A program made the position numbers and the translations under genes. DNA of 64,000 nt from Akkermansia sp. (lineage in GTDB: Bacteria > Verrucomicrobiota > Verrucomicrobiia > Verrucomicrobiales > Akkermansiaceae), in assembly GCA_045576695.1 (NCBI GenBank), contig JAZNGY010000075.1, positions 46,097-110,096 of the forward strand. Reading direction: 5' to 3'. This document shows, in pieces, positions 1,482-57,655 of the stretch. Numbering within the stretch: the stretch's first letter is position 1; each line of letters opens with the position of its first letter. The notes beneath the pieces were generated by a model that ran no database searches, was not told the DNA's origin, and saw only the letters and a list, made by a program, of their open reading frames with translations.

Positions 1482-3440
1482 ATGAAGATTCCCGATAAAG
1501 TACGCGTTGGCGAAAAGCTGTCCGCCCGCTGGCTCAATCAGATTATCGACTGCCTGAAGGAGCTGGCCAAGGCTGCCAACATGGCAGGCAACGGAACATC
1601 TACCTCCAGCATTGAATACTCCGGCTCGGATTATCGAGATACCAAGTACCGGGGTACTGGTGGTACCGATTTGCAGGAGTTCCGAGTTGTGCCGTTCCAG
1701 TTGCGGTTGAAGCCTAAGCATCTGTGTGATGTAAGCGCAGATGGCAATTGGCCAAAGATAGCCCAGATTAAAGCTGGGGCTATCATTGACTATATGGGCA
1801 AAACGCGCCCGGTTCCGGAGAACGCCACCATCTACGACTACACGGAGGGCTGGGTTGATATCGGAGCATTTTCGGAGCAATTACACAAGGTCTTTTGCAT
1901 CATTAAGCAGAATTACAAGGGCGAAATCCTCAGCGCGGAAATTAGGAGCTCTGAGGAGAAGTTTGTCCCTTGGGGGAAGACAGAGGAGAATACCAAGGGT
2001 GATGGCGTTCTGTCTGTCTTCATTGGTTCCTACCAGCTCCGCAAGATTAACGAGGTCAACCGCGCCCATATCTATCAGGCGCATTGTGGCACGTTGGATT
2101 TGCAGACCGTGCAGGTGGAGAAAGCCTTTGATGTAAGTGAGGAGGACGGGACGGGTAGCGGTAGTGAAGATGGTAGTGCCTATTACACCGCACCGGAAAG
2201 CGAGGAGTACGAAAGCAAACCCGCCGGGCTGTTCCGCAAGCGGGATGAACACTTGTTCGTATTCAAAAAGCTCATTTGTGGAGAAGGACTGGAGCTGGCA
2301 GACGGTAAGAATCTGAAAATCACGCTACGCCGCGCCAATTCTGAGTGGTCGAATGGCTCCGGGGATGCTTCGTCACAGTCCTCCGATGCTCCTGTCATCA
2401 CGATTGGCGGGGTGGAGGATATTGTGTTCGATAGTGAGATTCTGGAACCGGAGATTGATATGGGGATTATCAGGATTCCCTTTGCAGATACCATCAAGGA
2501 TGTTACGGGAGTCATTTCCGGGCTGGTGGTTAGATACGCTCCGGCAATCCTGAATGATGACGGCACGGTTACGTTCTTGGGTGAGGACGGTTCGCGGCTT
2601 CCTGATACGCCCGCGCCCGTTGATGCCGGTTCTGATTCTGCGTCCGGTTCCGGGGCTGCATCCTACCACAATCAGATTGTTAAGGGCGTTATCTACATCA
2701 CGATTCCGATTTTCCAAGATGGCTCAGGGTCACAATCTTTGTCGGCTTCTGCCAGCGCAAGTGATTCCGCTTCCGGTTCCGGCTCCTATGAGGATACCGA
2801 ATCTGCTTCTGATTCCGCTACCGGGTCTATCTCTGATACGGTGACTGGCTCCGCATCCGGCAGCGGTTCCGGCTCCGGTAGTGGGTCTGCATCTGCCTCG
2901 GATAGTGGTTCCGCTTCCGGTAGCTCCTCGGCATCCGATAGCGGTTCGGTTTCGGCTTCGGCCTCTGTCTCCGGTAGTGAGTCTGTGGCGGGCTCTACGG
3001 TAGAGTCTTCCCCCGATGGCTCGGCTACAGAGGATTCCACCCCGGGAGGTTCAACCCCGGGCGAATCCTTACCGGGAGGCTCTACGCCCAGCGGTTCTGT
3101 TCCGGGTGGTTCCTCTCCCGGCTCTGAGGGTGGCAGTTCCTCCGTTGGATGTGATTGTGCCGTCAAACTGGAGGAGATGGCCGCCAAGATTGCAGCTCTG
3201 GAAGAGCGCATTGCAGAGCTGGAGAAGAAAGAATGCACCTGTAAATGTGGTGACCTGCTGGCTCAGATTCAGGCAGCGGTGGCAGCCGAAGCTCAGGCAA
3301 TCGCAGCAAGCATCAATTACGAGGTATCGGTCAATGGAGCCGTAGTTACCACCACGGAATACGGTACGCTCGTAGCAGACACCACCGGCTCTGTAACCGC
3401 AAACGGAGCTTCTGCTAGCTCAAACATTCACTACGAATAA
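1482..3440 (+). CDS. Ser/Gly-rich tail-associated protein with C-terminal Cys motifs and coiled coil
   Basis: 652 aa; SASASDSASGS-type low-complexity tract at ~2620-3145; CDC...CTCKC; homolog of 49503-51530. Confidence 0.7.
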   Translation: MKIPDKVRVGEKLSARWLNQIIDCLKELAKAANMAGNGTSTSSIEYSGSDYRDTKYRGTGGTDLQEFRVVPFQLRLKPKHLCDVSADGNWPKIAQIKAGAIIDYMGKTRPVPENATIYDYTEGWVDIGAFSEQLHKVFCIIKQNYKGEILSAEIRSSEEKFVPWGKTEENTKGDGVLSVFIGSYQLRKINEVNRAHIYQAHCGTLDLQTVQVEKAFDVSEEDGTGSGSEDGSAYYTAPESEEYESKPAGLFRKRDEHLFVFKKLICGEGLELADGKNLKITLRRANSEWSNGSGDASSQSSDAPVITIGGVEDIVFDSEILEPEIDMGIIRIPFADTIKDVTGVISGLVVRYAPAILNDDGTVTFLGEDGSRLPDTPAPVDAGSDSASGSGAASYHNQIVKGVIYITIPIFQDGSGSQSLSASASASDSASGSGSYEDTESASDSATGSISDTVTGSASGSGSGSGSGSASASDSGSASGSSSASDSGSVSASASVSGSESVAGSTVESSPDGSATEDSTPGGSTPGESLPGGSTPSGSVPGGSSPGSEGGSSSVGCDCAVKLEEMAAKIAALEERIAELEKKECTCKCGDLLAQIQAAVAAEAQAIAASINYEVSVNGAVVTTTEYGTLVADTTGSVTANGASASSNIHYE

Positions 3441-3442
3441 CG

Positions 3443-3685
3443 ATGGCCTGTAACTGTGAAAATATAGACACGAACGCTATCTGCAATGCAGCCCGGCAAC
3501 TCCTGCGCAAAAGGTTTGCCGAGCTGCTGCAGAATATCCCGTGTTCCCATACCAATAGGGATGCCTACTACAGCCCATCTCAGTATTGGTACGACTTAGA
3601 CCGGACTGACCGCCGCACGGTCAGCACCAGCATGAGCGTTGGCCTGCGTGGGACAACCATTGTCATTACTCTCTCTTACGCCTGA
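3443..3685 (+). CDS. Small conserved Cys-containing phage protein (MACNCEN...)
   Basis: Syntenic homolog at 51543-51785. Confidence 0.75.
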   Translation: MACNCENIDTNAICNAARQLLRKRFAELLQNIPCSHTNRDAYYSPSQYWYDLDRTDRRTVSTSMSVGLRGTTIVITLSYA

Positions 3686-3686
3686 T

Positions 3687-4889
3687 ATGAAAATTGACCT
3701 CAACAAGAACACCCGCTGCATCTCGATGTCTCCCTGGAGGCAATGCTTCATGCGCCGCATTTTCCACGAGCGCGGGCTTACCATGCCCCCGGTGACGCAT
3801 CCCATCATCCCGGAGAAGCCTACGCGCCCCAAGGAGCCCAAGGCTTATTCGAGTCTGGCTCTGACCTTTATCCGCCTGATTCTGGAAGCAGAGCGAGACG
3901 GCTTGCCGTATCTGATTATCTACGAGGACGATGCTTATCCCTGTGCAGCCCCTCAGGAAACGCTCGATAAGCTGCTGGCTGAGCACCCGCTCCCGGCTGA
4001 CTGCGGTTTGCTGTGTCTGGGTGATGCTAACGGCGTGAGCCGTTTCCGGGGGAGGCATACCATCCTGCTGGACTCCTGCCAACGGCCTTACACTCCGCTT
4101 GTTCCAAACAGGGCAGAAAACAAGGGGAGCCATGCCTTTGTGGTATTCCGGTCTGCCATGATTCCTTTCGTGCAGGCAATCGCCTCTTTTGGTGTAACGG
4201 ACATGTCGTTCTCCCGCATCCGCAATCATTGCGGCCTCCGGGCGTATGGCATCTTCTTCGACCCTATCTTTACGCAGCACCGCTTCAATGGCGGCAATGC
4301 CCCGGAGCCCGCACACCGATTCCCGGAGTACTTCTTGCATCACAAGGCAGAGCTGGATAAACGATTCCCAAGGCCTACTCAGCAGACGCGCCTATTGGCC
4401 AAATCCTCACCGCGCTTCTGGCTCTTTGCCAATCATCCCAAGGCGAATGCCGCCGCGCTGGGGATTGCTCCGGATGATGTATTGGTATTCCTGAACCGCG
4501 CCAAGCCTTATGAGCACCTGAAGGATTTGCCGAATCGAAAGCTCCTCATTGTTCGCCGCAATGCCCGGGATAAAAACTGGTTCATCCCCTATGGCAAGGA
4601 GAAAGAGATTTTCTCTCTGTTTGAGGATGTGCTGCTCCTGAGTGATAAGGCCTTGGCCAAAGAACGCTCGTGGTTCGATGAATACAAGGCTGCCACCAAC
4701 AATGCTTCACCCACAACAGGCTGGATTGCTTACCACTTGCTGCGGGATGATTTCCCGGATGCCGAGGTAGTGCTGGTCAACTTCAAGCCTGATGGCAACA
4801 ACGGCTCCTATAAGTGGCACAAGCACGATTGGCAATACGAAGCAGAGTATTACCGCAAGCACGAGATACCTATCAAAATCTTATTTTGA
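3687..4889 (+). CDS. Putative two-domain glycosyltransferase (GT25-like N-terminus, GT29/sialyltransferase-like C-terminus)
   Basis: LIIYEDDA (GT25-like DxD region); DDVLVFLN, SPTTG...EVVLVNF and HDWQYE resemble sialylmotifs L, S and VS; homolog at 51790-53001. Confidence 0.65.
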   Translation: MKIDLNKNTRCISMSPWRQCFMRRIFHERGLTMPPVTHPIIPEKPTRPKEPKAYSSLALTFIRLILEAERDGLPYLIIYEDDAYPCAAPQETLDKLLAEHPLPADCGLLCLGDANGVSRFRGRHTILLDSCQRPYTPLVPNRAENKGSHAFVVFRSAMIPFVQAIASFGVTDMSFSRIRNHCGLRAYGIFFDPIFTQHRFNGGNAPEPAHRFPEYFLHHKAELDKRFPRPTQQTRLLAKSSPRFWLFANHPKANAAALGIAPDDVLVFLNRAKPYEHLKDLPNRKLLIVRRNARDKNWFIPYGKEKEIFSLFEDVLLLSDKALAKERSWFDEYKAATNNASPTTGWIAYHLLRDDFPDAEVVLVNFKPDGNNGSYKWHKHDWQYEAEYYRKHEIPIKILF

Positions 4890-4904
4890 CACCTGATTGC
4901 AAGT

Positions 4905-6296
4905 ATGGACATCTTTATCAACACAGACAAGAGCCCGGCTCAATTGCAGGGCAAATCTACGGGTTCCCCGCTTAGCTCTTTCAAGGTGAAGCGCGGAGCC
5001 GTAGTTCCTCTGAGTGTCACGATTCTGGGCTGTTCCTCCGCTTCCGGTCTTCGCATGGGCATCAAGGCAAAGGGCAACTACGAGGGAGATTTGCTTATCT
5101 TTGCTGAAGCAGATTCCGGCACGCAGACAGAACAGGGTACCCGCTTTGATTTGAAGTTGGTTGCTTCCTCTCTTGCGCTGAATGACGCGCTCGATGTAGG
5201 GGAGGGTAAGGAGAGTACTCCGGCCACTTTGGCAGCCATGACCGAGTTTGCTTGGATGGAGGGCGGCGAAACCCGTCTTTCTGATACTCTCCAGACGACT
5301 ATCATCAATGATATTATCCGCCTTGCCACGGATGCCCCGGAGAGTGTTACCGGGGAATATCCCGCGCCGGATTTGGTGGCCACTAAGTCTTGGGTGAACA
5401 GCAAACAGGCTTCCGTTGATACCTCTGGATTCGTTATGCTGGGTACGGATGAAACTATTTCAGGTAAGAACGCTCGCCCGATAGGTAAAACTTCCTCCGG
5501 CAGTCTTGCCGTGGATATTTCCGGTCTTTCTGCATACGATATAGCCAAGGATAACGGCTTTGTCGGCACCGAAGAGGCATGGCTTGCCTCGCTCAAAGGT
5601 GAGCGCGGAGCCAAGGGTGAACAGGGCGAACCGGGGATTCAAGGAGTTCAGGGCGAGCCCGGAGAAGTAGACCCGCTCGTGGTTGCCGATGCAGTACAGG
5701 AGGCTTTGTACGAAGAGCTTTTAGAGGAACACACCTCCGTAGTAGGTACAACCGACATCAATTGCCGTTGGGCACAGCTCAGCCTTGCACATTGCCCACC
5801 CGCCGGGAATCTGAAATCCATCACGATTCCTTGTCGTTCTGCCAGTAATTCTGAAATGACCACGGCCTCTTCCTATCTCGGAGTATTCGAGGAGAACTCT
5901 TCCGGTAACTTCGTCCACGTTGGTACATCCACGAATGCGGTGAATCAGGCAGCCGGAGCCAATAGCATTTGGCTCTTCGATGGTGTATCGTTGAGTGGCA
6001 CCAAAATCCGATTGTCTCTCATGACTAACCGTACGTCCACAGCTCTGAGCACCTCACTCATTCTGGGAGCCAGAGGCGCGTATAACGATACGGACGGCTG
6101 TTATCTGAGCAATTCCAGTGGCGGCACGGAAAAGTACCTCATTGGCGCGGTATTCACAATTGGTACCCCGGGACCTCTGTTTACCCCGGCTTCGCATGAG
6201 GCCGATGCGACCCTCCATCTGACAGCCGATGAACACACGGCTTTATCAGAGCTTCTCGCCAACAAGGATGCCTTGCTGGCTCTTCTCAACCAATAA
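4905..6296 (+). CDS. Tail fibre / receptor-binding protein with short collagen-like segment
   Basis: GERGAKGEQGEPGIQG repeat; N- and C-termini shared with 55055-56452, central domain different. Confidence 0.7.
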   Translation: MDIFINTDKSPAQLQGKSTGSPLSSFKVKRGAVVPLSVTILGCSSASGLRMGIKAKGNYEGDLLIFAEADSGTQTEQGTRFDLKLVASSLALNDALDVGEGKESTPATLAAMTEFAWMEGGETRLSDTLQTTIINDIIRLATDAPESVTGEYPAPDLVATKSWVNSKQASVDTSGFVMLGTDETISGKNARPIGKTSSGSLAVDISGLSAYDIAKDNGFVGTEEAWLASLKGERGAKGEQGEPGIQGVQGEPGEVDPLVVADAVQEALYEELLEEHTSVVGTTDINCRWAQLSLAHCPPAGNLKSITIPCRSASNSEMTTASSYLGVFEENSSGNFVHVGTSTNAVNQAAGANSIWLFDGVSLSGTKIRLSLMTNRTSTALSTSLILGARGAYNDTDGCYLSNSSGGTEKYLIGAVFTIGTPGPLFTPASHEADATLHLTADEHTALSELLANKDALLALLNQ

Positions 6297-7128: not shown

Positions 7129-7139
7129 GTCTGTAGAAG

Positions 7140-7212
7140 TGGAGCATAGCGGACTCGAACCGCTGACCCCTTCAATGCCATTGAAGTGCTCTACCAGCTG
7201 AGCTAATACCCC
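7140..7212 (-). tRNA. tRNA-Ala(GGC)
   Basis: Reverse complement GGGGTATTAGCTCAGCTGGTAGAGCACTTCAATGGCATTGAAGGGGTCAGCGGTTCGAGTCCGCTATGCTCCA; cloverleaf with anticodon loop ATGGCAT. Confidence 0.97.
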
Positions 7213-12627: not shown

Positions 12628-12700
12628 GGCCCTGTAGCTCAGTGGTTAGAGCAGGCGACTCATAATCGCTTGGTCGCGGGTTCGAGCCCCGCCGGGGCTA
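12628..12700 (+). tRNA. ileX: tRNA-Ile2 (CAT, lysidine-modified type)
   Basis: GGCCCTGTAGCTCAGTGGTTAGAGCAGGCGACTCATAATCGCTTGGTCGCGGGTTCGAGCCCCGCCGGGGCTA; closely resembles bacterial ileX; preceded by TTGACC...TACCAT promoter. Confidence 0.9.
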
Positions 12701-12746: not shown

Positions 12747-13154
12747 TGTTTATGTGCTGATATTTAATGAATTGCGGAGTCCTTAATTGTTAAAATGAAT
12801 GTATATTAAAAGGCTCAAAACGCCCTGATTTTGCCCTTTCTTACTCCCCGGGGACTCTAAAGGACTGGGGTTGCGGCATACAATAAACCCCTATTTTGAT
12901 GCAAAGGCTTAATGATGAGTGGATTGGATAAAAGTATATGGTTTACCCCTCTCAAATAAAAGTGGTGTTGATAATGAATGCGTTATGAGCCTGACCCATA
13001 AAAAGACTATACTTTTGCCCCTTTTCCTTCCCGAAAATCGGCAAGCTTTTTAATGATTCAACGGGAGTTAATGATATTGGACTGGCGGCATTTTTTTGTA
13101 AGTGTAAGTTATTGAAAATAAATGCAGAAAAAGCAAAGAAAAAGTAAAAAAAGC

Positions 13155-13182
13155 TAGACATTGGTTGCTCATGTGCTACACT
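13155..13182 (+). promoter_or_regulatory. Sigma70-type promoter (TAGACA-16-TACACT, extended -10)
   Basis: Same architecture at 31101, 37970, 53055, 53854, 56828 and 16727 (minus). Confidence 0.6.
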
Positions 13183-13222
13183 TTACAACGAGATAAAGCC
13201 TTAACGCTAAACGTATTAAATA

Positions 13223-14320
13223 ATGCACAACAAACTCCACATAACCCGCTACAACAAGACCCGCAACTGGGCCATCTGGGCGAATGAGGAACTGCTGGCA
13301 GTAACAGTATACAGAAAAGGCGCACAGGCCGTTCTCGACTACATTTACACATTAACCCAAAACACAATAAATACTATGTCCAAGACTAAGACAACCGCCG
13401 CCGCTACCACCGCCACCAACAACAACGCCGACTTCGACCCGACCATCATCAAGGCCGTCAACGGCGAGGGCAAGACCATCCGCATCAAGTTCGACCCGCT
13501 GGGCGTAAGCGTCTGCTACAACCTGAAGGGTAAGTGGTGCGCCCATGAAATCTACAACCAGCCGCTGCCTGAGCTGATTGCCGAGGGCGTATTCACCATC
13601 GAGGACGAGGATTCACAAAAGACCTACGCCAAGTATTTCAACGCTGGCAAGAAAGACAAGCGTTCCAAGGCCAAGCGCAGCAAGGCCAAGAAGCAGAAGA
13701 AGAACGCCGAGCCCCAGGAACAAGAACAGGAAGCCGCCATCGCAGCGATTGAGGAAGCCCCGCACATGGAAGCCGCAGAAATCAACGAAGAGATGGAAGC
13801 CGCCCTCTGGCAGGAGATTGAGGAAGCCCGCGAGGCTGAGCAGCTGGCAGAGGTAACGATGGAAGCTCAGGACGAGGAAGCCGCAGAAGCCGATGAAGAA
13901 AGCGTTGAGCCCGCAGCAGAGGAACCCGCCACTAACGAGCCTGAATCGAATGAAGCCGAATCTAACGAGCCCGTGACGGACGTGGAGCCGACCGCCGAAG
14001 CCCCGGCACAGGAATCCGCCGCTGAGGCCGCTCAGCCCGAAGAAGCCCCGAGCAAGCTCAGTACCTACAACCTGAAAAAAACTGGACAAGCCCCTATGAG
14101 TCTCACCCCCGGTAGCGATGATATCAAGCTGGAGCCCGGTGACCAGTTAATCCGAATCTACAAGCGCAGAATGATTGAAGTAGAGGTGACCGAGAATGGC
14201 TACAAATGGAACGGCGAGGTTTATCCTACCCTCACCCACATCAGCTGGAAAGCAGCCGGATACCAGATCAGCGGCAACACATTCTTCGGCCTCCCCAGCA
14301 AGCCCCGCAGTAAGGCTTAA
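13223..14320 (+). CDS. Acidic protein with C-terminal DUF2924-like domain
   Basis: C-terminus LIRIYK...VEVTENGYKWNGEVYPTLTHISWKAAGYQISGNTFFGL parallels the C-terminus of 16113-16652; long Glu/Ala-rich linker; alternative start at 13376. Confidence 0.75.
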   Translation: MHNKLHITRYNKTRNWAIWANEELLAVTVYRKGAQAVLDYIYTLTQNTINTMSKTKTTAAATTATNNNADFDPTIIKAVNGEGKTIRIKFDPLGVSVCYNLKGKWCAHEIYNQPLPELIAEGVFTIEDEDSQKTYAKYFNAGKKDKRSKAKRSKAKKQKKNAEPQEQEQEAAIAAIEEAPHMEAAEINEEMEAALWQEIEEAREAEQLAEVTMEAQDEEAAEADEESVEPAAEEPATNEPESNEAESNEPVTDVEPTAEAPAQESAAEAAQPEEAPSKLSTYNLKKTGQAPMSLTPGSDDIKLEPGDQLIRIYKRRMIEVEVTENGYKWNGEVYPTLTHISWKAAGYQISGNTFFGLPSKPRSKA

Positions 14321-14839: not shown

Positions 14840-16129
14840 TTATTCGAGTCCTTTCTTGAGGGTCACGTCCAACTGCTCTCCATTGTCGTTGATAACGATG
14901 CTTTCAAATGCGGCTTGGAATACTTTTTGCAATTCTCGCGGGGTAGAATCACCTAATGCCGTGTCGATGCTGTAGAGCGCGTCTGCGATTCGCCCAGCGT
15001 CTTCATCGGGCAGCTGCCGGATAAGAGCTGCCAGTACCTGGGGGCTGTCCCTGAATCGCAGGATATAGCCTTTCAACAATTCCTCAATCTGGTCTGCTCC
15101 GAAGTGAGGGGAGGCGCAGCCCTGCAAATAGTCGTGCCTGTTGGCTGCACAGGTGTAATAGCGGCGCATTACTCCACGTTTGATGGTGTATGTGCCAAGA
15201 TATAGCCTTCCGCATTTGCCGCATTTCAGAATCCCTTTGAGCGGGTAGATAACCTTGTGTTCTTTCTGATCCAGCCCGCTGCGCAGCTCTCGTGCTTCAT
15301 TATTTCTCTGGCACGTTTTTTCGTACGTCTCTTGGTCAATGATTGGCTGGTGGATGCCTTGAATGAGTCCAGAATCCGTCTTCACATAGCCAGCGTAGAC
15401 GTAGTGAGTGAGGATACGCTTAATCGTCTGGCTGTTCCAAGGTATACGCTCGCCACTATCCTTGTTCTTGCGGTACAGCCGTTTCTCTTTATTGAGTTGC
15501 CGGGCAATGACTACTGGGCCTTTGCCTCCTATATAAAGCTCGTGGATGTAGCGGACAGTAGCAGATTCCAGCCTATCGACCACGAGCTTCTTTTCATGCC
15601 ATTTGTATCCGTAGGGCGCACTACCACATACCCAACGGCCTTGTGCTTTACAGGCGTTGATTTTATCCCTGAGTCGGGAACGGATGATTGCGGCTTCGTA
15701 GTCGGCAACTACGGCCATCATGTTCATGGAAAGCTTACCCTCCGGCGTGTGCGTTTCAATGGACTGGGTGGCGCTGACAAATGCCACATTGTGGTCACTA
15801 AACTCCTTCATCAGCGTGGTGAAGTCACCTAAGTCTCGGCTCAGTCGGTCGAGCTTGTACACCACTACACAATCAATCTCGCCCGCTCTAACCTGATGTC
15901 GGAGCATGTTGAGCTGGTCGCGGTGTACGGTGGTGCCACTCACCGCCGCATCTACGAATGAAGCTACGAACACCCATCCGTCTTTTTCATGGCGGCGTAT
16001 GCAATCCATGCACATGTCGAATTGGGCATCAAGAGAGTTGTATTCTTGGTCGAGACCTTTGGCAATGGATTTGCGGGTGTAGATAGCACACCGCTTTGTT
16101 GGCATTACTGGATTACTTGTTGTCATCAT
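14840..16129 (-). CDS. Large serine recombinase (integrase candidate)
   Basis: CAIYTRKS catalytic Ser, VVVYKLDRLSR, recombinase domain, CGKCG zinc ribbon. Confidence 0.92.
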   Translation of the reverse strand: MMTTSNPVMPTKRCAIYTRKSIAKGLDQEYNSLDAQFDMCMDCIRRHEKDGWVFVASFVDAAVSGTTVHRDQLNMLRHQVRAGEIDCVVVYKLDRLSRDLGDFTTLMKEFSDHNVAFVSATQSIETHTPEGKLSMNMMAVVADYEAAIIRSRLRDKINACKAQGRWVCGSAPYGYKWHEKKLVVDRLESATVRYIHELYIGGKGPVVIARQLNKEKRLYRKNKDSGERIPWNSQTIKRILTHYVYAGYVKTDSGLIQGIHQPIIDQETYEKTCQRNNEARELRSGLDQKEHKVIYPLKGILKCGKCGRLYLGTYTIKRGVMRRYYTCAANRHDYLQGCASPHFGADQIEELLKGYILRFRDSPQVLAALIRQLPDEDAGRIADALYSIDTALGDSTPRELQKVFQAAFESIVINDNGEQLDVTLKKGLE

Positions 16130-16652
16130 TTCTGGGAGTCATGGGGAGGTTAAAGAAGTAGTTGCCGCTTTTGGCGTAGCCGCAGATTTTCCAAGCAATC
16201 GCGGTCAGGTTGTCGTACTTCACGCCATCGTATGCGAACATGTTTTTGCCGATGACTGTGACCTCGTGGTACTTGCCTTTGTACAGGCGGCGTATGATTG
16301 TGCCGACAGGTAGATTGGTTGCGGGCGTATTGGCGTGGTTATTCTCAGGATGACTGGTATCGACTATCTCCATCGGCTTTACATTGAATCGGCGAGGCTT
16401 CAGCCGGATGAGAGTCTCATCTGCAATCTCGTGGGCTCGTTTCATTGCTCGCTCGGATATCCCTCCGTTGATGAGGGTATTGATTCTCCACGTCAGCCTC
16501 TTGATGAGGAACTGGCGATTTCTGGTTGTATAGGGTTGATTCCCGAATAGGAGTACCCACTCGCGCCGGAGTTCGCGGACTTTCATATCCTGCAAAGCGG
16601 CTATGCGGGCAGCTCCTTCCTCTGGTGTCAGTTTTGTGATGGTTTGACTCAT
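16113..16652 (-). CDS. DUF2924 domain protein
   Basis: ELRREWVLLFG...; PVGTIIRRLYKGKYHEVTV...LTAIAWKICG...SGNYFFNL; overlaps recombinase start. Confidence 0.8.
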   Translation of the reverse strand: MSQTITKLTPEEGAARIAALQDMKVRELRREWVLLFGNQPYTTRNRQFLIKRLTWRINTLINGGISERAMKRAHEIADETLIRLKPRRFNVKPMEIVDTSHPENNHANTPATNLPVGTIIRRLYKGKYHEVTVIGKNMFAYDGVKYDNLTAIAWKICGYAKSGNYFFNLPMTPRNDDNK

Positions 16653-51542: not shown

Positions 51543-51785
51543 ATGGCTTGCAACTGTGAAAACATCGACATGAACAGCATCCGCGCCGCTGTCCGACAAC
51601 TCCTCTGGCAGCGGGTTGCGGAGATTGTTCAGAATATCTCCTGCACACACACCAATACCGATGGCCACTACAGCCCCTCGCAATACTGGTATGACCTCGA
51701 CCGCACCGACCGCCGTTCTGTCAGCACCAGTATGAGCGTGGGGCTGCGTGGCAATACCATTGTCATCACTCTTTCCTACGCCTAA
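51543..51785 (+). CDS. Small conserved Cys-containing phage protein
   Basis: Homolog of 3443-3685. Confidence 0.75.
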   Translation: MACNCENIDMNSIRAAVRQLLWQRVAEIVQNISCTHTNTDGHYSPSQYWYDLDRTDRRSVSTSMSVGLRGNTIVITLSYA

Positions 51786-51789
51786 CCCA

Positions 51790-53001
51790 ATGCCTGATAT
51801 GAAAATTGACCTCAACAAGAACACACGCTGCATTTCGATGTCTCCTTGGAGGCAAAGCTTTATGCGCCGCATCTTCCTTGAGCGGGGATTGCAAATGCCA
51901 CCTGTAACGTACCCCATCATTCCCGAGAAGCCTACACGACCCAAGGAGCCCAAGGCTTATTCGAGCCTCGCCCTTACGTTTATGCGGCTAGTTCTGGATG
52001 CAGAGAAAGAGGGCTTGCCGTATCTGATTATCTACGAGGACGATGCTTATCCCTGCAATGCCCCACAGGCTACGCTCGACAAGCTACTTGCCGACCATCC
52101 TCTTCCATCTGACTGTGGGCTTCTGTGCCTGGGGGACAGGAATGGCAACAGTCGGTATCGTGGTCGGCATACGCTCTTGCTGGAGGACTGCCAAGCTCCG
52201 TACACGCCCCTCGTGCCGAATCGTGCCGAGAACAAGGGCAGTCATGCTTTCGTGGTATTCCGACCTGCCTATATCCCATTCGTGCAAGCTATTGCCAGCT
52301 TCGGAGTGACTGATATGTCGTTCTCGCGCATCAGGAATCATTGTGACCTGCAAGCCTATGGTATCTTCTTCGACCCCATATTCAGCCAGCATCGCTACAA
52401 TGGCGGCAATGACCCGGAGCCCGCCCACCTGTACCCTGAGTATTTCATGCACCACAGGCGGGAGCTGGATAAAAGATTCCCTCGGCCTACGCAGCAGACT
52501 CGGTTGCTGGCGAAGCCCGCTCCCCGCTTCTGGTTGTTTGCCAACAATCCCAAGGTGGATGCTGAGGCGTTAGGCATTGCCCCCGATGATGTGCTGGTAT
52601 TTCTCAACCGGGCAAAGCCTTTCGAGCATCTGCGGGACTTACCTAATCGCCGCATCCTCATTGTTCGCCGTAACGCCAGAGACAAAAACTGGTTCACTCC
52701 CTACGGCAAGGACAAGGAACTCTTTTCTCTATTCGAGGACGTGCTGCTTCTGAGTGACAAGGCTTTGGCAAAGGAACGCAGATGGTTTGCTGAATACAAG
52801 TCTGCTACGAAGAACGCTTCTCCTACTACCGGCTGGATCGCGTACCAACTCTTGCGTGAGCATTACCCGGATGCGGAGGTGGTGCTGGTGAACTTTGTGC
52901 CGGATGGCAACAACGGCTCATACAAATGGCAGAAGCATGACTGGCAATATGAGGCTGAGTATTACCGGAAACACGATGTCCCTTGCCGAGTTTTGCTGTG
53001 A
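51790..53001 (+). CDS. Putative two-domain glycosyltransferase (GT25-like + GT29-like)
   Basis: Homolog of 3687-4889 with all motifs retained. Confidence 0.65.
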   Translation: MPDMKIDLNKNTRCISMSPWRQSFMRRIFLERGLQMPPVTYPIIPEKPTRPKEPKAYSSLALTFMRLVLDAEKEGLPYLIIYEDDAYPCNAPQATLDKLLADHPLPSDCGLLCLGDRNGNSRYRGRHTLLLEDCQAPYTPLVPNRAENKGSHAFVVFRPAYIPFVQAIASFGVTDMSFSRIRNHCDLQAYGIFFDPIFSQHRYNGGNDPEPAHLYPEYFMHHRRELDKRFPRPTQQTRLLAKPAPRFWLFANNPKVDAEALGIAPDDVLVFLNRAKPFEHLRDLPNRRILIVRRNARDKNWFTPYGKDKELFSLFEDVLLLSDKALAKERRWFAEYKSATKNASPTTGWIAYQLLREHYPDAEVVLVNFVPDGNNGSYKWQKHDWQYEAEYYRKHDVPCRVLL

Positions 53002-53022
53002 TGTAAAGCGTTGAAAATAAGT

Positions 53023-53162
53023 GCAAAAAGGTGAAAGAAAAAGTAAAAAAGTCCTTGCATCTTGTTCGCAATCTGCTATACTTTCACCATAGACAAAAGG
53101 CTAACGCTTAATACATTACAACACGCAATACGACCATGAGCACCACCACCAAGACCGCCGCC
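53023..53162 (+). repeat. 140-bp direct repeat copy 1 (UP element, promoter, leader, first 9 codons)
   Basis: Matches 53822-53961 with about 3 mismatches. Confidence 0.92.
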
Positions 53163-53528
53163 GACAACGCCGCCCTGAACGAGCTGAAGCGTAACAGCAT
53201 CGCCCGCGAGTACAAATACCAGCTCCTGAGCTTCATGACCGAGTACGAGACTCTGGAACAGCACGAGCATCAGAAAGCCGCCCTCCTGCGCCGAGCTGAA
53301 TACAGCACAGAACTCCTCCACATCCTCGATACGCGCAGCGCCGTAGAAGTGATGGAGGATTTCAAATCTGAGAATGAGCGTATCAAAGACCGCATCAAGG
53401 AGCAGAAGCGAATCGTTACGTACAAGGCAAACAAGCTGATGGAAGCCGTAGCCCTCATGAATAACGAGCTTGGCATCCAAGTCGCCAGCCCCGCATTGGA
53501 AATCGCTAAGCAGTTCATTAACGCCTAA
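53136..53528 (+). CDS. Small helical protein, paralog family member 1
   Basis: MSTTTKTAA start; C-terminal ELGIQV...IAKQFINA. Confidence 0.75.
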   Translation: MSTTTKTAADNAALNELKRNSIAREYKYQLLSFMTEYETLEQHEHQKAALLRRAEYSTELLHILDTRSAVEVMEDFKSENERIKDRIKEQKRIVTYKANKLMEAVALMNNELGIQVASPALEIAKQFINA

Positions 53529-53542
53529 CCTGATATCGACCC

Positions 53543-53809
53543 ATGAGCGCAACTATCAAGACCGTATACTACAGCAAGGCTGGTGAAATCGTCAGCAGCT
53601 GGGATGAAGCTGAGAGCGTGACCTACCACACCATCTGTACCAACGAGCAAGCAGACGCAGCCGAGGCCAAGTTGGTAGCTCTGGCCCACGAGTTTGCCGA
53701 GAAGCACTACAAGGAGGTACAGAAAGAGAACTACAGCATTCGCGGAGCCAAGCTCAACGATGGCACCTACTACATGCAGACGAAGGTGTGGAAGCAAAGC
53801 TGTAAGTGA
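53543..53809 (+). CDS. Small hypothetical protein
   Basis: 88-aa ORF within the cassette. Confidence 0.7.
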   Translation: MSATIKTVYYSKAGEIVSSWDEAESVTYHTICTNEQADAAEAKLVALAHEFAEKHYKEVQKENYSIRGAKLNDGTYYMQTKVWKQSCK

Positions 53810-53821
53810 TTGGAAATAAAC

Positions 53822-53961
53822 GCAAAAAGGCGAAAGAAAAAGTAAAAAAGTCCTTGCATCTTGTTCGCAATCTGCTATACTTTCACCATAGACAAAAGGC
53901 TAACGCTTAATACATTACAACACACAATACAACCATGAGCACCACCACCAAGACCGCCGCC
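53822..53961 (+). repeat. 140-bp direct repeat copy 2
   Basis: See 53023-53162. Confidence 0.92.
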
Positions 53962-54303
53962 GCCCTGAAGTACAACGTCCTGTCCTACTACAAGTACCAC
54001 TTCGTGAAGTTCCTGAAGGAGATGGACAAGCTGGATGAATACCAGCGCCAGCTGGAAGCCCTCGACCGCCGTGAGGCTCTGACCAAGAGCCTGATGGAGC
54101 AGATGGATAAGGGAAGCGCCGAGCATCTTGCTAAGGATTTCCAGTTTGAACGTGAGTGCATCGAACAGAACATCGCAGATACTGGGTACTACTTGGAAGG
54201 CAAATCAGAAAAGCTGATTGCCGCCGCAGAGAAGATGGCTGAGCTTGGCCTCCCGGTAGAGGAAAGCGTCATCACTATGGCCAAGGTTTACATTAACGCC
54301 TAA
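53935..54303 (+). CDS. Small helical protein, paralog family member 2
   Basis: MSTTTKTAA; C-terminal ELGLPV...MAKVYINA. Confidence 0.75.
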   Translation: MSTTTKTAAALKYNVLSYYKYHFVKFLKEMDKLDEYQRQLEALDRREALTKSLMEQMDKGSAEHLAKDFQFERECIEQNIADTGYYLEGKSEKLIAAAEKMAELGLPVEESVITMAKVYINA

Positions 54304-54316
54304 TCCCTTAACTACA

Positions 54317-54625
54317 ATGACCGAGTTATACGACATCGAGAGCGACACCGCCCAGATTTACGAAGAGCGAGCAACCGCATTGAAAGCGACCTTGAGCGAA
54401 ATCGACAAGTGGCTGGATTTCTACGATAAGGCAGTCGAGTCTGAGGACAACCTAGAAAAGTATGAATCCGCTCTGGCTCAATACACTTGGAACATGACCA
54501 AGCTCGAAGAGAAAGCTATCTGGCAGAGTAAGGACTTTTGGCGAATCGCCGGGCTCGCCATGTCCCACGGTCTGGAGGTAGACATTGAGCTACTGGGTAA
54601 AGCCGCTTCCTATAGAAGCCTCTGA
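54317..54625 (+). CDS. Small acidic helical protein, paralog member 3
   Basis: YEERATALK...IAGLAMSHGLEVD. Confidence 0.75.
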   Translation: MTELYDIESDTAQIYEERATALKATLSEIDKWLDFYDKAVESEDNLEKYESALAQYTWNMTKLEEKAIWQSKDFWRIAGLAMSHGLEVDIELLGKAASYRSL

Positions 54626-54666
54626 TAACACTAACAAATTTCCCCAACAACAAACACAATACAACA

Positions 54667-54981
54667 ATGATACACGCAACAAAAGAAGAAATCGGAAAGG
54701 CCTACGAGGCCAAGGCAACGGAACTCCGCAACGCCCTCGAAATGACGATGGAAATCATGGACAACTACGAAGCCGCCGTCATTGAGGACACCGACAAGGA
54801 GACGTACGACAAGGCCAAGGCTGCCTACTGCAACAACATCGTACAGTACGCAGAGAACAATGACCGCCTGAGTCTGGAGTTCAGCAAGATTGCCGGGCTT
54901 GCCTTATATTACGAGCTGGAGGTAGACATGAAGCTGTTGAAAATAGCCATGAACTACGTAGACCAGCATCGGCCGGAATAA
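54667..54981 (+). CDS. Small acidic helical protein, paralog member 4
   Basis: YEAKATELR...IAGLALYYELEVD. Confidence 0.75.
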   Translation: MIHATKEEIGKAYEAKATELRNALEMTMEIMDNYEAAVIEDTDKETYDKAKAAYCNNIVQYAENNDRLSLEFSKIAGLALYYELEVDMKLLKIAMNYVDQHRPE

Positions 54982-55001
54982 CGAGAAATCCTAGCGATTT
55001 C

Positions 55002-55036
55002 CCCGGGAGCAGACACCACGCTGCCCCGGCTTTTTT
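55002..55036 (+). terminator. Terminator closing the small-gene cassette
   Basis: ccgggagcag...ctgccccgg followed by T6. Confidence 0.7.
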
Positions 55037-55054
55037 GACGTGCCGCCCCTTGGT

Positions 55055-56452
55055 ATGGATATCTACATCAATCCCGACAAGTCTCCGGCAGCTGTACAGG
55101 CAAGAACCAGCGGTACGCCTATCTCTTCGCTTCGCCTCAAGCGCGGAGCCAATCTCAACTTTTCCGTGGTTATCATTGGCAGCAAAGCTGCAAGCAATCT
55201 ACGTTTCGGCATCAAGGCCAAGGGCGATTACGAGGGCTCACTCCTCGCGTATGCGGAAGCCACTACCGGGCAAGCTACTGACGAGGGGATGAAGTTCGAC
55301 CTGAGCCTTACTGTGGCAAGCATGGCTCTGAATGAAGCCCTTGATGTTGGCTCTGGTAATGCGGTCGCTGCGGCCTCTCTTTCCGCAGTAGCCGAGTTTG
55401 CTTGGCAAGACGATGGTGCAGAACGAATTTCCGATACCATCAATACCACGCTCCTCAATGATATTATCCGCTTGGCTACGGAAGCCCCCGAGGCTGCGGC
55501 TGGTGAATATCCGGCTCCTGACCTCGTGGCCACCAAGTCTTGGGTGAACAACAAGCAAGCAACGGCTGATGCTTCCGGCTTCGTGAAGCTGGGAACTGAT
55601 GAAAAGCTTTCCGGCAAGAATATTCGCCCTGTAGGCAAGACGGATGCAGGAGGCTTGGCGGTGGATGTCTCCGGGCTCTCCGCTTACGAGATTGCCAAGG
55701 CTCAGGGCTTCGTTGGTACTGAGGAAGCATGGCTTGCTTCCCTAAAGGGTGAGCGCGGTTCTAAAGGGGAAAAGGGCGAGCCCGGCATCCAAGGTGAGAG
55801 CGGAGCATCTGCCTATGATGTATGGCTGACTGAGGGTAACACAGGCGACAAGACTGCCTTCTTTGCTGACTTAGGCACGTCTGCCTTGGCAACGCTGTAT
55901 GAGTCGCCCGCCGGAGTAGCCACCGATAATGCCAACATCTATGGCTTCGGCATGGTGATGAAAAACAGGGGACAAGTACGCGCTCTCTCCACTCAATGCC
56001 GAACTGGCGGTAACGCTGCTCCTGCCAACACGGATATTTTGGCCAAGGTATGGAAAAAGGACAGCAGCGGCAACAAGACTCTCCTTGCTACCAGCACGAA
56101 CTATCAGCAGCATAGTGTAGGCGAGACTCTCCGTTGGAAGTTTGACCCGTTTGAGGTGGAAGCCGGGGATATGCTTCTGGTTACGTTCCATACCAGCGAC
56201 TATGAGGATGGTACTCAGTATGCAGCTGGGCATCAATGTTGCTTCGCAGTCACCAGCACCAGCGAACCAGAAACCGGGTGCATTGGTGGCGATGGCCAAT
56301 GGCAGTATACCAATCTTATTCCACTCTACACTTGGGAACTTCAGGTACGGCATGCTTACGACACAATCTCACACTTAACCCCCGATGAACACACCGGGCT
56401 TGCGCAGCTCCTCGCAAGGAAAGACGCTCTGCTCGCTCTCCTTAACTCTTAA
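55055..56452 (+). CDS. Tail fibre / receptor-binding protein
   Basis: Homolog of 4905-6296; collagen-like segment; different central domain. Confidence 0.7.
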   Translation: MDIYINPDKSPAAVQARTSGTPISSLRLKRGANLNFSVVIIGSKAASNLRFGIKAKGDYEGSLLAYAEATTGQATDEGMKFDLSLTVASMALNEALDVGSGNAVAAASLSAVAEFAWQDDGAERISDTINTTLLNDIIRLATEAPEAAAGEYPAPDLVATKSWVNNKQATADASGFVKLGTDEKLSGKNIRPVGKTDAGGLAVDVSGLSAYEIAKAQGFVGTEEAWLASLKGERGSKGEKGEPGIQGESGASAYDVWLTEGNTGDKTAFFADLGTSALATLYESPAGVATDNANIYGFGMVMKNRGQVRALSTQCRTGGNAAPANTDILAKVWKKDSSGNKTLLATSTNYQQHSVGETLRWKFDPFEVEAGDMLLVTFHTSDYEDGTQYAAGHQCCFAVTSTSEPETGCIGGDGQWQYTNLIPLYTWELQVRHAYDTISHLTPDEHTGLAQLLARKDALLALLNS

Positions 56453-56476: not shown

Positions 56477-56788
56477 ATGACCAATTCAGCAGTAACAGGC
56501 GGTATCGTTATCGCAAATGCTCTGGCCGTGGTTTCCATTGCTACGGCTACAGAGCTTAACCCTATACTTGAGTGCATCCAGAATGGTGCATCAGTCGGCG
56601 CGATCATGGGCATCTTTCTTTGGCGTGAGGTAAAGCGAGCTGAACGCTACGAGCATCTTTACGACCAAGAGCGCAAGCTCAGGCTGGAGGCCGAGAACAA
56701 ATGCAAGAGTTGTCCTTTCGTGCAGCGTGCCAACGAGGAGTTTATCGACAGGCGCATTGATGAAGAAAGACAAGATGCAAAGCATTGA
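56477..56788 (+). CDS. Holin-like membrane protein
   Basis: Homolog of 6314-6625. Confidence 0.5.
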   Translation: MTNSAVTGGIVIANALAVVSIATATELNPILECIQNGASVGAIMGIFLWREVKRAERYEHLYDQERKLRLEAENKCKSCPFVQRANEEFIDRRIDEERQDAKH

Positions 56789-56884
56789 GTATTAAGAAGA
56801 AAAAGAAAAGAAAAATGCAAAAAGTTCTGGACTCTTGTGCCTGATGTGCTATACTGTGATAATAGATAAAAGCACTAAGTAGCA

Positions 56885-57172
56885 ATGAATAACGATAATA
56901 TAGACAAGCTGAAAGCCTACGGCATCGACCCCGCCAAGTATGATGAATACGAGATGGAGGAAATCGCCAACACTCTGAACACCTACGAGGAAAACAAGGC
57001 ATACGCCGACAGCTACCGCAAGGAGCTGGAAGCCGGGGATGAATCCGACAACGGCTACCACGAGTTCTTGCAGGGGATGGCCGACCGCGAAATCATCAGC
57101 CTGTATGAAAATTACGGCATCGTTACCAACATCAAAATCGAGGGCTGGGAACCCACTAAGAACGAGCATTAA
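56885..57172 (+). CDS. Small acidic protein in promoter-led cassette
   Basis: TGGACT-16-TATACT promoter at 56828-56855. Confidence 0.7.
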   Translation: MNNDNIDKLKAYGIDPAKYDEYEMEEIANTLNTYEENKAYADSYRKELEAGDESDNGYHEFLQGMADREIISLYENYGIVTNIKIEGWEPTKNEH

Positions 57173-57184
57173 CCTTTTACAACC

Positions 57185-57598
57185 ATGAGCAGTACATCAA
57201 TCGAAAGAGGAGACATAGTCCGAATCAAGTCGGAATGGCTTGACGCAGGAGAGAACGCAGAGCTGAAGTATGTGGTGTTGCAGGATAACGGCAACAATCG
57301 CGTACTTATCCGAGCCCTCGACACAGGTCTGCCATTACCCCCGGTAAATGAAGCCGATAAAGATTGGCTCGTGTACTGCGGACGAGCTTACCCCAAATAT
57401 GAACCCGAACAAATACCATCAGGCATGAACGTATACATCGAAGCAAGCTTCACCATCCAAAGCACAGGTGAGCATAAAAGGATAGAAGTCAAGATTAACG
57501 AAGACCTCATCCCCTGGGGCGTGGCGAAGTTCCTTGAACGCCGCTACGGCGAAATCACGGGGCTGTGCTTCCACTTCACACGAGAAGCCAACGACTAA
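57185..57598 (+). CDS. Hypothetical protein
   Basis: Second gene of the cassette; followed by agccgcc...ggcggct-T terminator. Confidence 0.7.
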   Translation: MSSTSIERGDIVRIKSEWLDAGENAELKYVVLQDNGNNRVLIRALDTGLPLPPVNEADKDWLVYCGRAYPKYEPEQIPSGMNVYIEASFTIQSTGEHKRIEVKINEDLIPWGVAKFLERRYGEITGLCFHFTREAND

Positions 57599-57655
57599 AG
57601 GCCCAGCCGCCCACAAGGCGGCTTTTTCTTTGCCTTTTGACAAGTGTCCTCAAGT

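Follow-up and report, generated by a model that had tools for sequence, protein, structure and literature searches.

A probable hypervariable moron cassette in the tail region of siphovirus-like Akkermansia prophages

The cassette and its promoter units

The window analysed here is a 64,000-nucleotide stretch of an Akkermansia sp. genome (contig C75:46097-110096 of a 3.14-Mb assembly in 237 contigs) that carries two prophages. In prophage 2, five small genes (A to E), two near-identical promoter units and a terminator-like hairpin lie between a putative glycosyltransferase-like gene (GT) and the tail-fibre gene, where a preliminary description of the sequence had placed them (Table 1). In prophage 1 the stop codon of the GT and the start of the tail-fibre gene are 15 nt apart, as had also been reported, and the homologous flanks (3639-4889 and 4905-6296) hold no remnant of the promoter unit. 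Among related prophages the same parts occur in at least ten arrangements, which points to a fast-changing accessory cassette of the kind called a moron; morons are promoter-gene-terminator units between lambdoid late genes, such as lambda lom and bor or HK97 gp15. The locus is probably a moron cassette that is hypervariable, transcribed autonomously and situated in the tail region of siphovirus-like Akkermansia prophages, and its products would be cytoplasmic helical-hairpin proteins.

Table 1. Positions of the cassette, its flanking genes and the second accessory unit in the window (ORF, open reading frame)
Feature	Position	Strand	Remarks
Empty site in prophage 1	4887..4907	+	GT stop to tail-fibre start
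GT, left flank	51748..53001	+	ORF, 417 aa; usual but not universal left neighbour
Promoter unit, copy 1	53002..53135	+	phased A-tracts ~53010-53052; -35 TTGCAT 53055-53060; extended -10 53074-53082; homology between copies runs on to 53163
Gene A	53136..53528	+	ORF, 130 aa; A/C family
Gene B	53543..53809	+	ORF, 88 aa; unrelated to A, C, D and E (BLASTP)
Promoter unit, copy 2	53801..53934	+	-35 53854-53859; extended -10 53873-53881; begins within the last codons of B
Gene C	53935..54303	+	ORF, 122 aa; paralog of A
Gene D	54317..54625	+	ORF, 102 aa; d102 subfamily of the D/E family
Gene E	54667..54981	+	ORF, 104 aa; e104 subfamily of the D/E family
Intrinsic-terminator-like hairpin and U-run	55003..55037	+	-20 kcal/mol, z = -3.98; ~18 nt 5' of the tail-fibre ATG
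Tail-fibre gene, right flank	55040..56452 (alternative start 55055)	+	collagen-like segment; PHROG tail-fibre matches
Promoter unit, copy 3 (diverged)	56776..56884	+	72% identity (BLAST extent 56776-56872); -35 TGGACT 56828-56833; -10 TGCTATACT 56847-56855
95-aa protein gene	56885-57172	+	very acidic product (net charge -14); headed by promoter unit copy 3
137-aa protein gene	57185-57598	+	
Terminator of second accessory unit	57605-57623 plus T-run	+	unit spans 56885..57632; host metK follows

The two units form a direct repeat (53002-53163 and 53801-53962; 162 nt at 94% identity, or 153 nt at 96% by BLAST) whose alignment is near-perfect through codon 9 of genes A and C (MSTTTKTAA) and then abruptly breaks down, which bears out the earlier observation of a near-identical unit with diverged coding sequence 3' of it. 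The first seven codons of B (MSATIKT) are similar to the starts of A and C. A 41-nt core of the unit is found exactly twice in the window, against none expected from 100 shuffles, and BLAST located at least nine copies of the unit on six contigs of the genome, standing before an A- or C-type gene between the GT and the tail fibre of sister prophages or, in a diverged form, before a 93-95-aa acidic gene at the right prophage end. When 17 distinct copies from several prophages were aligned, the unit proved to be conserved from about -95 to +25, the conserved parts being GTAAAG..TTGAAAATAAGTG, the phased A-tracts, TTGCAT, a 13-nt spacer, TGCTATACT and ACCATAGA.AAAAG.CTAA; some 50 nt of A-tracts 5' of TTGCAT-N13-TGCTATACT are kept across all 17 copies. 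The leader, ~48 nt long in copy 1, is unstructured (fold z = +0.9) and without a Shine-Dalgarno sequence, and Rfam gave no match in units or leaders.

Upstream of seven host tRNA genes an A/T-rich region is followed by aaagcTTGC(A/C)A-N14-TG(C/A)TA(T/A)A(A/C/T)T, and this shared architecture suggests that the unit mimics a strong sigma-70 class of promoter with an extended -10 and an UP-like element; the match to the tRNA promoters of this genome upholds the previous assignment of the units as host-type promoters. Given such mimicry, host RNA polymerase should be able to transcribe the unit without phage factors, and transcription would take place in the lysogen and/or right after DNA entry, independently of the surrounding late operon. 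The locus would thus be built of self-contained transcription units, in which a portable module of ~120-160 nt (phased A-tracts, TTGCAT, the extended -10 TGCTATACT and the leader, with the first ~9 codons as well in the case of A and C) drives one to four small genes and is normally closed by a terminator. A hairpin equivalent to the one 3' of E is predicted from sequence at the same site in two related prophage loci, L009 and L043; folding of the window indicated no terminator after B, a position at which relatives have one.

Recognition of the unit by the sigma-like protein of the phage itself was rejected: the inverted twin promoters (20388 and 23798) that flank this sigma-region-4 protein are unrelated to the unit, and the host tRNA promoters match it. 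A general concerted evolution of the two units of each phage was likewise rejected, identity being 0.85 within loci versus 0.83 between loci with the same downstream gene; the pair in the window is among the most similar within-locus pairs. On contigs C28, C43, C87 and C110 the host tRNA promoters consist of a long A/T tract, aaagcTTGCAA, a 14-nt spacer and TGCTA(T/A)A(A/C)T, a form that may serve as a working consensus for strong Akkermansia promoters.

The codon adaptation index (CAI) was calculated with 12 host ribosomal protein genes as the reference, the median for length-matched host windows being 0.385. Genes A (0.60, 94th percentile), B (0.59) and C (0.62, 95th percentile), together with the 95-aa gene 3' of the tail fibre (0.62), lie at the 93rd-95th percentile of these windows; E reaches 0.50 and D 0.43, and the index is 0.54 for the major capsid gene, 0.42 for the tail fibre and 0.33 for the GT. 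The same pattern is seen in L009. In GC3 (GC content at third codon positions) and CAI the cassette differs from the prophage in the direction of highly expressed host genes, and the high CAI fits the strong expression that is predicted for the promoter-proximal genes.

Layouts and recombination in related prophages

Related Akkermansia prophages, referred to here by locus number (L), have 0, 1, 3, 4, 5 or 6 cassette genes, in agreement with the insertion relative to prophage 1 and the variable gene content that had been proposed for this site. In the layouts below, P, T and TF denote promoter unit, terminator and tail-fibre gene. The commonest layout is GT-P-C-B-T-P-A-d100-d102-e104-T-TF (L009, L011, L014-16 and L033). 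The same cassette follows a 796-aa TMP_3 protein rather than the GT in L010 and L012 (region 2650-5163), in which the block of Ser-rich, 80-aa and GT genes is missing, so that the GT block is itself optional; and it occurs without d102 in L032 and L035 and on contigs C40 + C22 of the present genome. Other layouts are GT-P-A-d100-d102-e104-TF (L034), GT-P-A-T-TF with a single gene in the slot (L043), P-C-B-e104-TF (L039), P-C-B-e104 followed by a PEP-CTERM gene on the opposite strand (L030), P-A-B-e104-TF (L036), P-C with a 60-aa ORF, a d100-like gene and TF (L040), and P-A followed by a second A/C-type gene and P (L024). The window itself reads GT-P-A-B-P-C-d102-e104-T-TF. L031 is window-like, with unit 2 placed to drive d102 directly and a PA14/M60-like peptidase gene between the GT and unit 1; in L038 A is followed by C and then e104; and prophage 1 represents the empty site. 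An e104-type gene is the last before the tail fibre in nearly all relatives, and the tail-fibre gene always follows the cassette on its right, whichever gene stands on its left.

Relative to the common layout, the A and C slots are swapped in the window. A and C have common ends, at the 5' side the unit with the first codons and at the 3' side ...AK.[FY]INA, AACGCCTAA. The C gene of L038 starts with ATGAGCGCAACTATCAAGACC joined to GCCGCCGCC, i.e. the start of B fused to C within the shared CAAGACCG, and here a crossover in the shared 5' codons, starting from a layout like that of the window, deleted unit 2 and the rest of B. Two further proteins are composite, P0225 being a chimera of C and e104, and P0247 a tandem fusion with promoter units on its flanks. 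The slot swap of A and C, unit 2 of L031 on a D-type gene and the L038 breakpoint support recombination at the conserved gene ends; the preliminary description had inferred it at the promoter unit. Turnover would then proceed between the unit with its 5' codons on one side and the ...AK.[FY]INA-stop end on the other, making A and C alternative cassettes in two slots and allowing genes to be gained, lost, fused or replaced. D of the window is 57% identical to d102 of L009. Against the common alleles, identity is 57% for the d102 gene of the window and 47% for its e104 gene, where neighbouring genes reach 80-90%. The GT is 81-84% identical to its counterparts in related prophages and prophage 1.

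The cassettes of L009 and L010 are 92-100% identical and their fibres 48%, and L009, L032 and L034 share the same fibre with different cassettes; cassette content therefore does not track tail-fibre type. This bears on the possibility that the small proteins are virion-assembly helpers, that is, tail-fibre chaperones or assembly factors tied to the adjacent fibre gene, as the fixed position directly 5' of that gene and the e104-type gene at the end of the row might suggest. We hold this to be very improbable, since none of the five genes is present in prophage 1, L043 is without D/E genes, cassette and fibre type vary independently, the cassette has what appears to be its own host-type promoter and a terminator before the fibre gene, and the proteins gave no match to tail-assembly families, including those of the Tfa/gp38 type.

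Two relatives carry secreted cargo of host type in the same slot. In L031 (1375-3774, minus strand) this is a 799-aa secreted protein with PA14, M60-like N-terminal, Peptidase_M60 (HEHGH) and Ig-like domains (Pfam E 1.2e-19 for the peptidase), beside an A gene 98.5% identical to that of the window; it would represent a mucinase-type gene on the prophage of a mucin-degrading host. In L030 (6103-6834, minus strand) the cargo, encoded between e104 and the tail fibre, is a protein of 243 aa that combines a signal peptide with a PEP-CTERM sorting motif.

The genome under study has at least four cassette-bearing sister prophages besides prophage 1 (contigs C60, C40, C22, C171, C77 and C113). Several contigs end at or beside a promoter unit, and the repeated units may contribute to the fragmented assembly.

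As to the surroundings, prophage 2 has a siphovirus-like gene order of large terminase, portal, protease, major capsid and tape measure, followed by genes for 299-aa, Ser-rich 675-aa and 80-aa proteins and then by the GT, the cassette and the tail fibre. The GT had no Pfam match. On the 3' side of the fibre there are a gene for a 103-aa protein with a hydrophobic N-terminal segment, two further small genes and the host metK. Copy 3 of the promoter unit heads a second accessory unit (Table 1), which is found, like the copy itself, in every related prophage examined that reaches that far; its 137-aa gene is split into ORFs of ~72 and 57 aa in C77, C113, L013 and L015. Between the two prophages ARAGORN identified a tRNA-Ala(GGC) gene (7139-7212, minus strand) and a CAT-anticodon tRNA gene called as Met (12628-12700, plus strand). 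A weak fourth copy of the unit (13112-13151; A-tracts, CTAGACA..TGCTACACT and a similar leader) lies 5' of a gene (region 13112-14320, CAI 0.57) for a 365-aa protein with an acidic low-complexity middle and a DUF2924-like C-terminus (Pfam 8e-13), which adjoins a large serine recombinase gene (14840-16129) and the gene of a second DUF2924 protein (16113-16652).

Relatives of the window's proteins carry the label Akkermansia sp. or belong to mis-binned metagenome-assembled genomes (MAGs) from the gut. The cassette had no DNA or protein match in a collection of deposited phages, among which the capsid of Verrucomicrobia phage P8625 is 25% identical to that of prophage 2, and IMG/VR contains one related locus. 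Nothing on this locus was found in the literature on Akkermansia prophages, morons and anti-CRISPR proteins.

Protein families and their possible roles

In BLASTP comparisons A and C are related at 36% identity (E 3e-20) and D and E at 33% (E 3e-15), B is unrelated, and no match between A/C and D/E is significant. The preliminary description had taken A, C, D and E as four mutual paralogs; the two pairs are robust, whereas the link across them consists of a shared topology in AlphaFold2 (AF2) models, a C-terminal motif and a weak profile score. The AF2 models of A (mean confidence, pLDDT, 91.2; helices 3-56, 58-63, 66-112 and 119-128) and E (pLDDT 89.9; helices 6-39, 44-81 and 88-99) both consist of a long antiparallel hairpin followed by a six-residue loop and then by a short C-terminal helix. 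The motif, V-x7-A-x2-[FY], is drawn from the invariant residues of each family (V116, A124 and F127 in A/C; V86, A94 and Y97 in D/E) and occupies the same structural place in both models, the Val lying in the loop. In profile-profile comparison (hhalign) the families matched with P 0.027 over 19 columns, exactly the C-terminal module, and with P 0.0086 over 55 collinear columns once they were enlarged, at an HH-suite probability below 5%; a search of 1.84 billion proteins with the A/C profile did not retrieve D/E. A common origin of A/C and D/E is plausible, though not established. The acidity noted for the proteins is clear for D and E (net charge -10 and -9, isoelectric point 4.4-4.7) and does not extend to A, B and C (-1 to -4, isoelectric point 5.3-6.3). 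No hydrophobic segment or signal peptide was found in A-E.

A database of 5.8 billion proteins contains 294 relatives of A/C, all named hypothetical and all from Akkermansia or mis-binned MAGs, and the family amounts to 8 clusters at 50% identity among the 1.84 billion proteins, including a 260-aa tandem fusion and a member on a contig of 31% GC that is clearly not Akkermansia. The D/E family, with 127 relatives, divides into the subfamilies d100, d102 and e104. A/C genes occur in one of 151 Akkermansiaceae species representatives, namely the genome studied here, and A/C and D/E appear to be new families, found for the most part in prophages of a single Akkermansia species. The member on the 31%-GC contig, P0248 (L028:6001-6360), belongs clearly to A/C (profile E 2.7e-14), so that this family is not confined to Akkermansia phages; the contig is 82 kb long and has many small uncharacterised genes around that of P0248, with a weak WYL_2 match and a GNAT acetyltransferase nearby.

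With dN/dS values of 0.22-0.25 for A, 0.12 for B, 0.14-0.17 for C and 0.08 for E, and all five genes within 0.08-0.25, purifying selection is evident and A-E are real genes. The absence of homologs of known function and the narrowness of the A/C family, with its few clusters, could be taken to mean that the cassette is made of chance ORFs or decaying remnants between repeated non-coding elements. This can hardly be the case, as it is contradicted by the dN/dS range over many allele pairs and by hundreds of intact homologs, confident AF2 models and high codon adaptation.

Searches of A-E and their neighbours against Pfam, PHROGs, PADLOC and NCBIfam returned noise, and profile searches of PDB sequences gave no usable match. 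The one match at E below 0.001 was a weak one of E to the PADLOC Csx21 model (E 1.5e-4), which we treat as a lead. A second lead is Thermotoga maritima Mre11 (PDB 3qf7 chain D): A/C profile positions 35-66 (~36-66 in A) weakly resemble its C-terminal helix-loop-helix, the part that binds Rad50, with E 0.0035 and 20 bits over 32 helical residues, a likeness that may reflect no more than helical composition. When the models of A and E were compared by Foldseek with the PDB, and that of A with BFVD, the best E value was 0.12, and what matched were helical hairpins of a generic kind, such as tubulin cofactor A and designed bundles. Within the moron reading, A/C and D/E would be soluble proteins of the cytoplasm, each an alpha-helical hairpin that ends in a short helix, accompanied by the small and unrelated B; being without an enzymatic signature, they would most likely bind and modulate another protein, in a conflict between phage and host or between phages, or in lysogenic conversion.

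The genes had been put forward as candidates for anti-defence or anti-CRISPR functions, in which case they would be inhibitors of host immunity that are made at phage DNA entry and diversify in an arms race. The anatomy of the cassette is compatible with this: variable, homolog-less small proteins are encoded between conserved structural genes with what looks like their own host-type promoter, D and E are acidic, and in the window d102 and e104 have diverged more from the common alleles than the neighbouring genes have. In addition, the host has a CRISPR array (contig C192:17949-20789; 40 repeats of 36 nt, CCGCCATTCAGTAACACCAACATCAGCGAGTGCAAC, and 39 spacers of 34-39 nt), Akkermansia with defences of the BREX and restriction-modification (RM) type are on record (PMC10799925), and the Mre11 and Csx21 matches could be counted here as leads. 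However, no direct evidence emerged. None of the 39 spacers matches the resident prophages or related loci, so there is no self-targeting that would need an anti-CRISPR protein; the best self-match is that of spacer 9 to C160:58238-58268, at 28 of 31 positions (3 mismatches). No helix-turn-helix (HTH) or other Pfam or NCBIfam domain was seen in A-E or the neighbouring small genes, nor an aca-like gene in or beside the cassette, and the proteins showed no Pfam, PHROG, NCBIfam or PDB homology, no structural match and no likeness to the anti-CRISPR or anti-defence entries in Pfam or the PDB. Moreover, an arms race within allele groups is not apparent from the gene-wide dN/dS, the same slot holds secreted cargo of the host-benefit type, and an unrepressed promoter of tRNA strength would have the lysogen make the proteins all the time, usually at a cost. 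We therefore regard an anti-defence role as a possible but rather unlikely explanation.

The constitutive-looking host-type promoters and the terminators, if they act as predicted, could also serve cargo that protects the lysogen, such as cytoplasmic immunity or exclusion proteins against other phages or interbacterial toxins, or toxin-antitoxin or abortive-infection pairs. High codon adaptation and the acceptance of lysogenic-conversion-type cargo by the slot would agree with this, and tandem small helical paralogs of variable content are typical of orphan immunity-gene arrays. But A-E lack a PADLOC, Pfam or NCBIfam match, a membrane segment, which is common in exclusion proteins, and a recognisable toxin-like partner, and the coexistence of at least four cassette-bearing sister prophages with prophage 1 disfavours strong exclusion within this phage family. 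We judge lysogen protection to be unlikely. A bolder proposal, which we think quite improbable, is that A/C and D/E form one new superfamily of hairpin inhibitors directed against host immunity or DNA repair and produced from promoters of tRNA strength. If it were true, the weak likeness of the A/C hairpin tip to the Rad50-binding part of Mre11 would signify docking on the coiled coils of Rad50/SMC-like ATPases (SbcCD, or defences of the Lamassu/Wadjet type), and cassette shuffling would match an inhibitor repertoire to different host targets.

Some observations also weigh against an autonomously transcribed moron cassette. There is no compositional sign of foreign origin, as the GC content of the cassette (0.50) is near that of the prophage (0.53), and the codon adaptation of D and E is average to moderate. 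TTGCAT agrees with the E. coli -35 consensus (TTGACA) at three of six positions, so that a generic scan based on that consensus missed the site and listed TAGACA-16-TACATT within the leader instead, a candidate that we rejected as not conserved in unit 3. The conserved block from +1 to +25 could be an operator, in which case expression would be regulated and not constitutive. Finally, no fold or sequence match points to a binding partner of the proteins.

Relation to known systems and significance

The moron concept was reportedly defined by Juhala and Hendrix, and morons of Pseudomonas phages are said to have been treated by Tsao et al. in 2018. Like morons, the cassette interrupts a gene pair that is contiguous in a sister prophage, here beside the tail-fibre gene, is dispensable and of variable content, and has a predicted sigma-70-type promoter and a predicted factor-independent terminator downstream. 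Unlike morons, it has as its promoter a portable module that occurs at least three times per prophage and is joined to the opening codons of a family of paralogs; two such families are reshuffled among the slots, and the GC content of the cassette does not deviate from the phage backbone. The cassette would fit the classical definition on three of five features, the promoter being judged by its sequence.

Two other systems invite comparison. The acr-aca loci of Mu-like Pseudomonas phages (JBD30 and the D3112 group) resemble the cassette in their variable, homolog-less small proteins, their fixed site between structural genes and, as far as the units are promoters, in having a promoter of their own, but the cassette differs in having no aca-type HTH repressor gene, no self-targeting spacer and no homology to anti-CRISPR proteins. 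With the accessory hotspots of temperate phages and satellites, such as those of P2 and P4 and the central variable region of cluster N mycobacteriophages, it shares a fixed slot, a fast turnover of cargo among syntenic prophages and host-benefiting cargo, here the M60-like peptidase and the PEP-CTERM protein of relatives; in contrast to these hotspots, the main cargo consists of two families of ~100-130-aa helical hairpins and not of recognisable defence enzymes, and the slot lies within the tail module. What is distinctive of the present locus is the portable tRNA-like promoter/leader module together with the slot-wise exchange of two paralog families.

Since the architecture of morons and hotspots is well known, the value of this locus lies in its candidate genes and in its recombination anatomy rather than in a new principle. 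Akkermansia is a key mucus-associated commensal of the gut in which little is known of prophage expression, and the promoter/leader module could be a useful genetic part for these bacteria. The two or three conserved, codon-optimised and reshuffled families without known homologs are good candidates for altering host or phage biology, and the M60-like peptidase cargo hints that these prophages can change traits relevant to colonisation.

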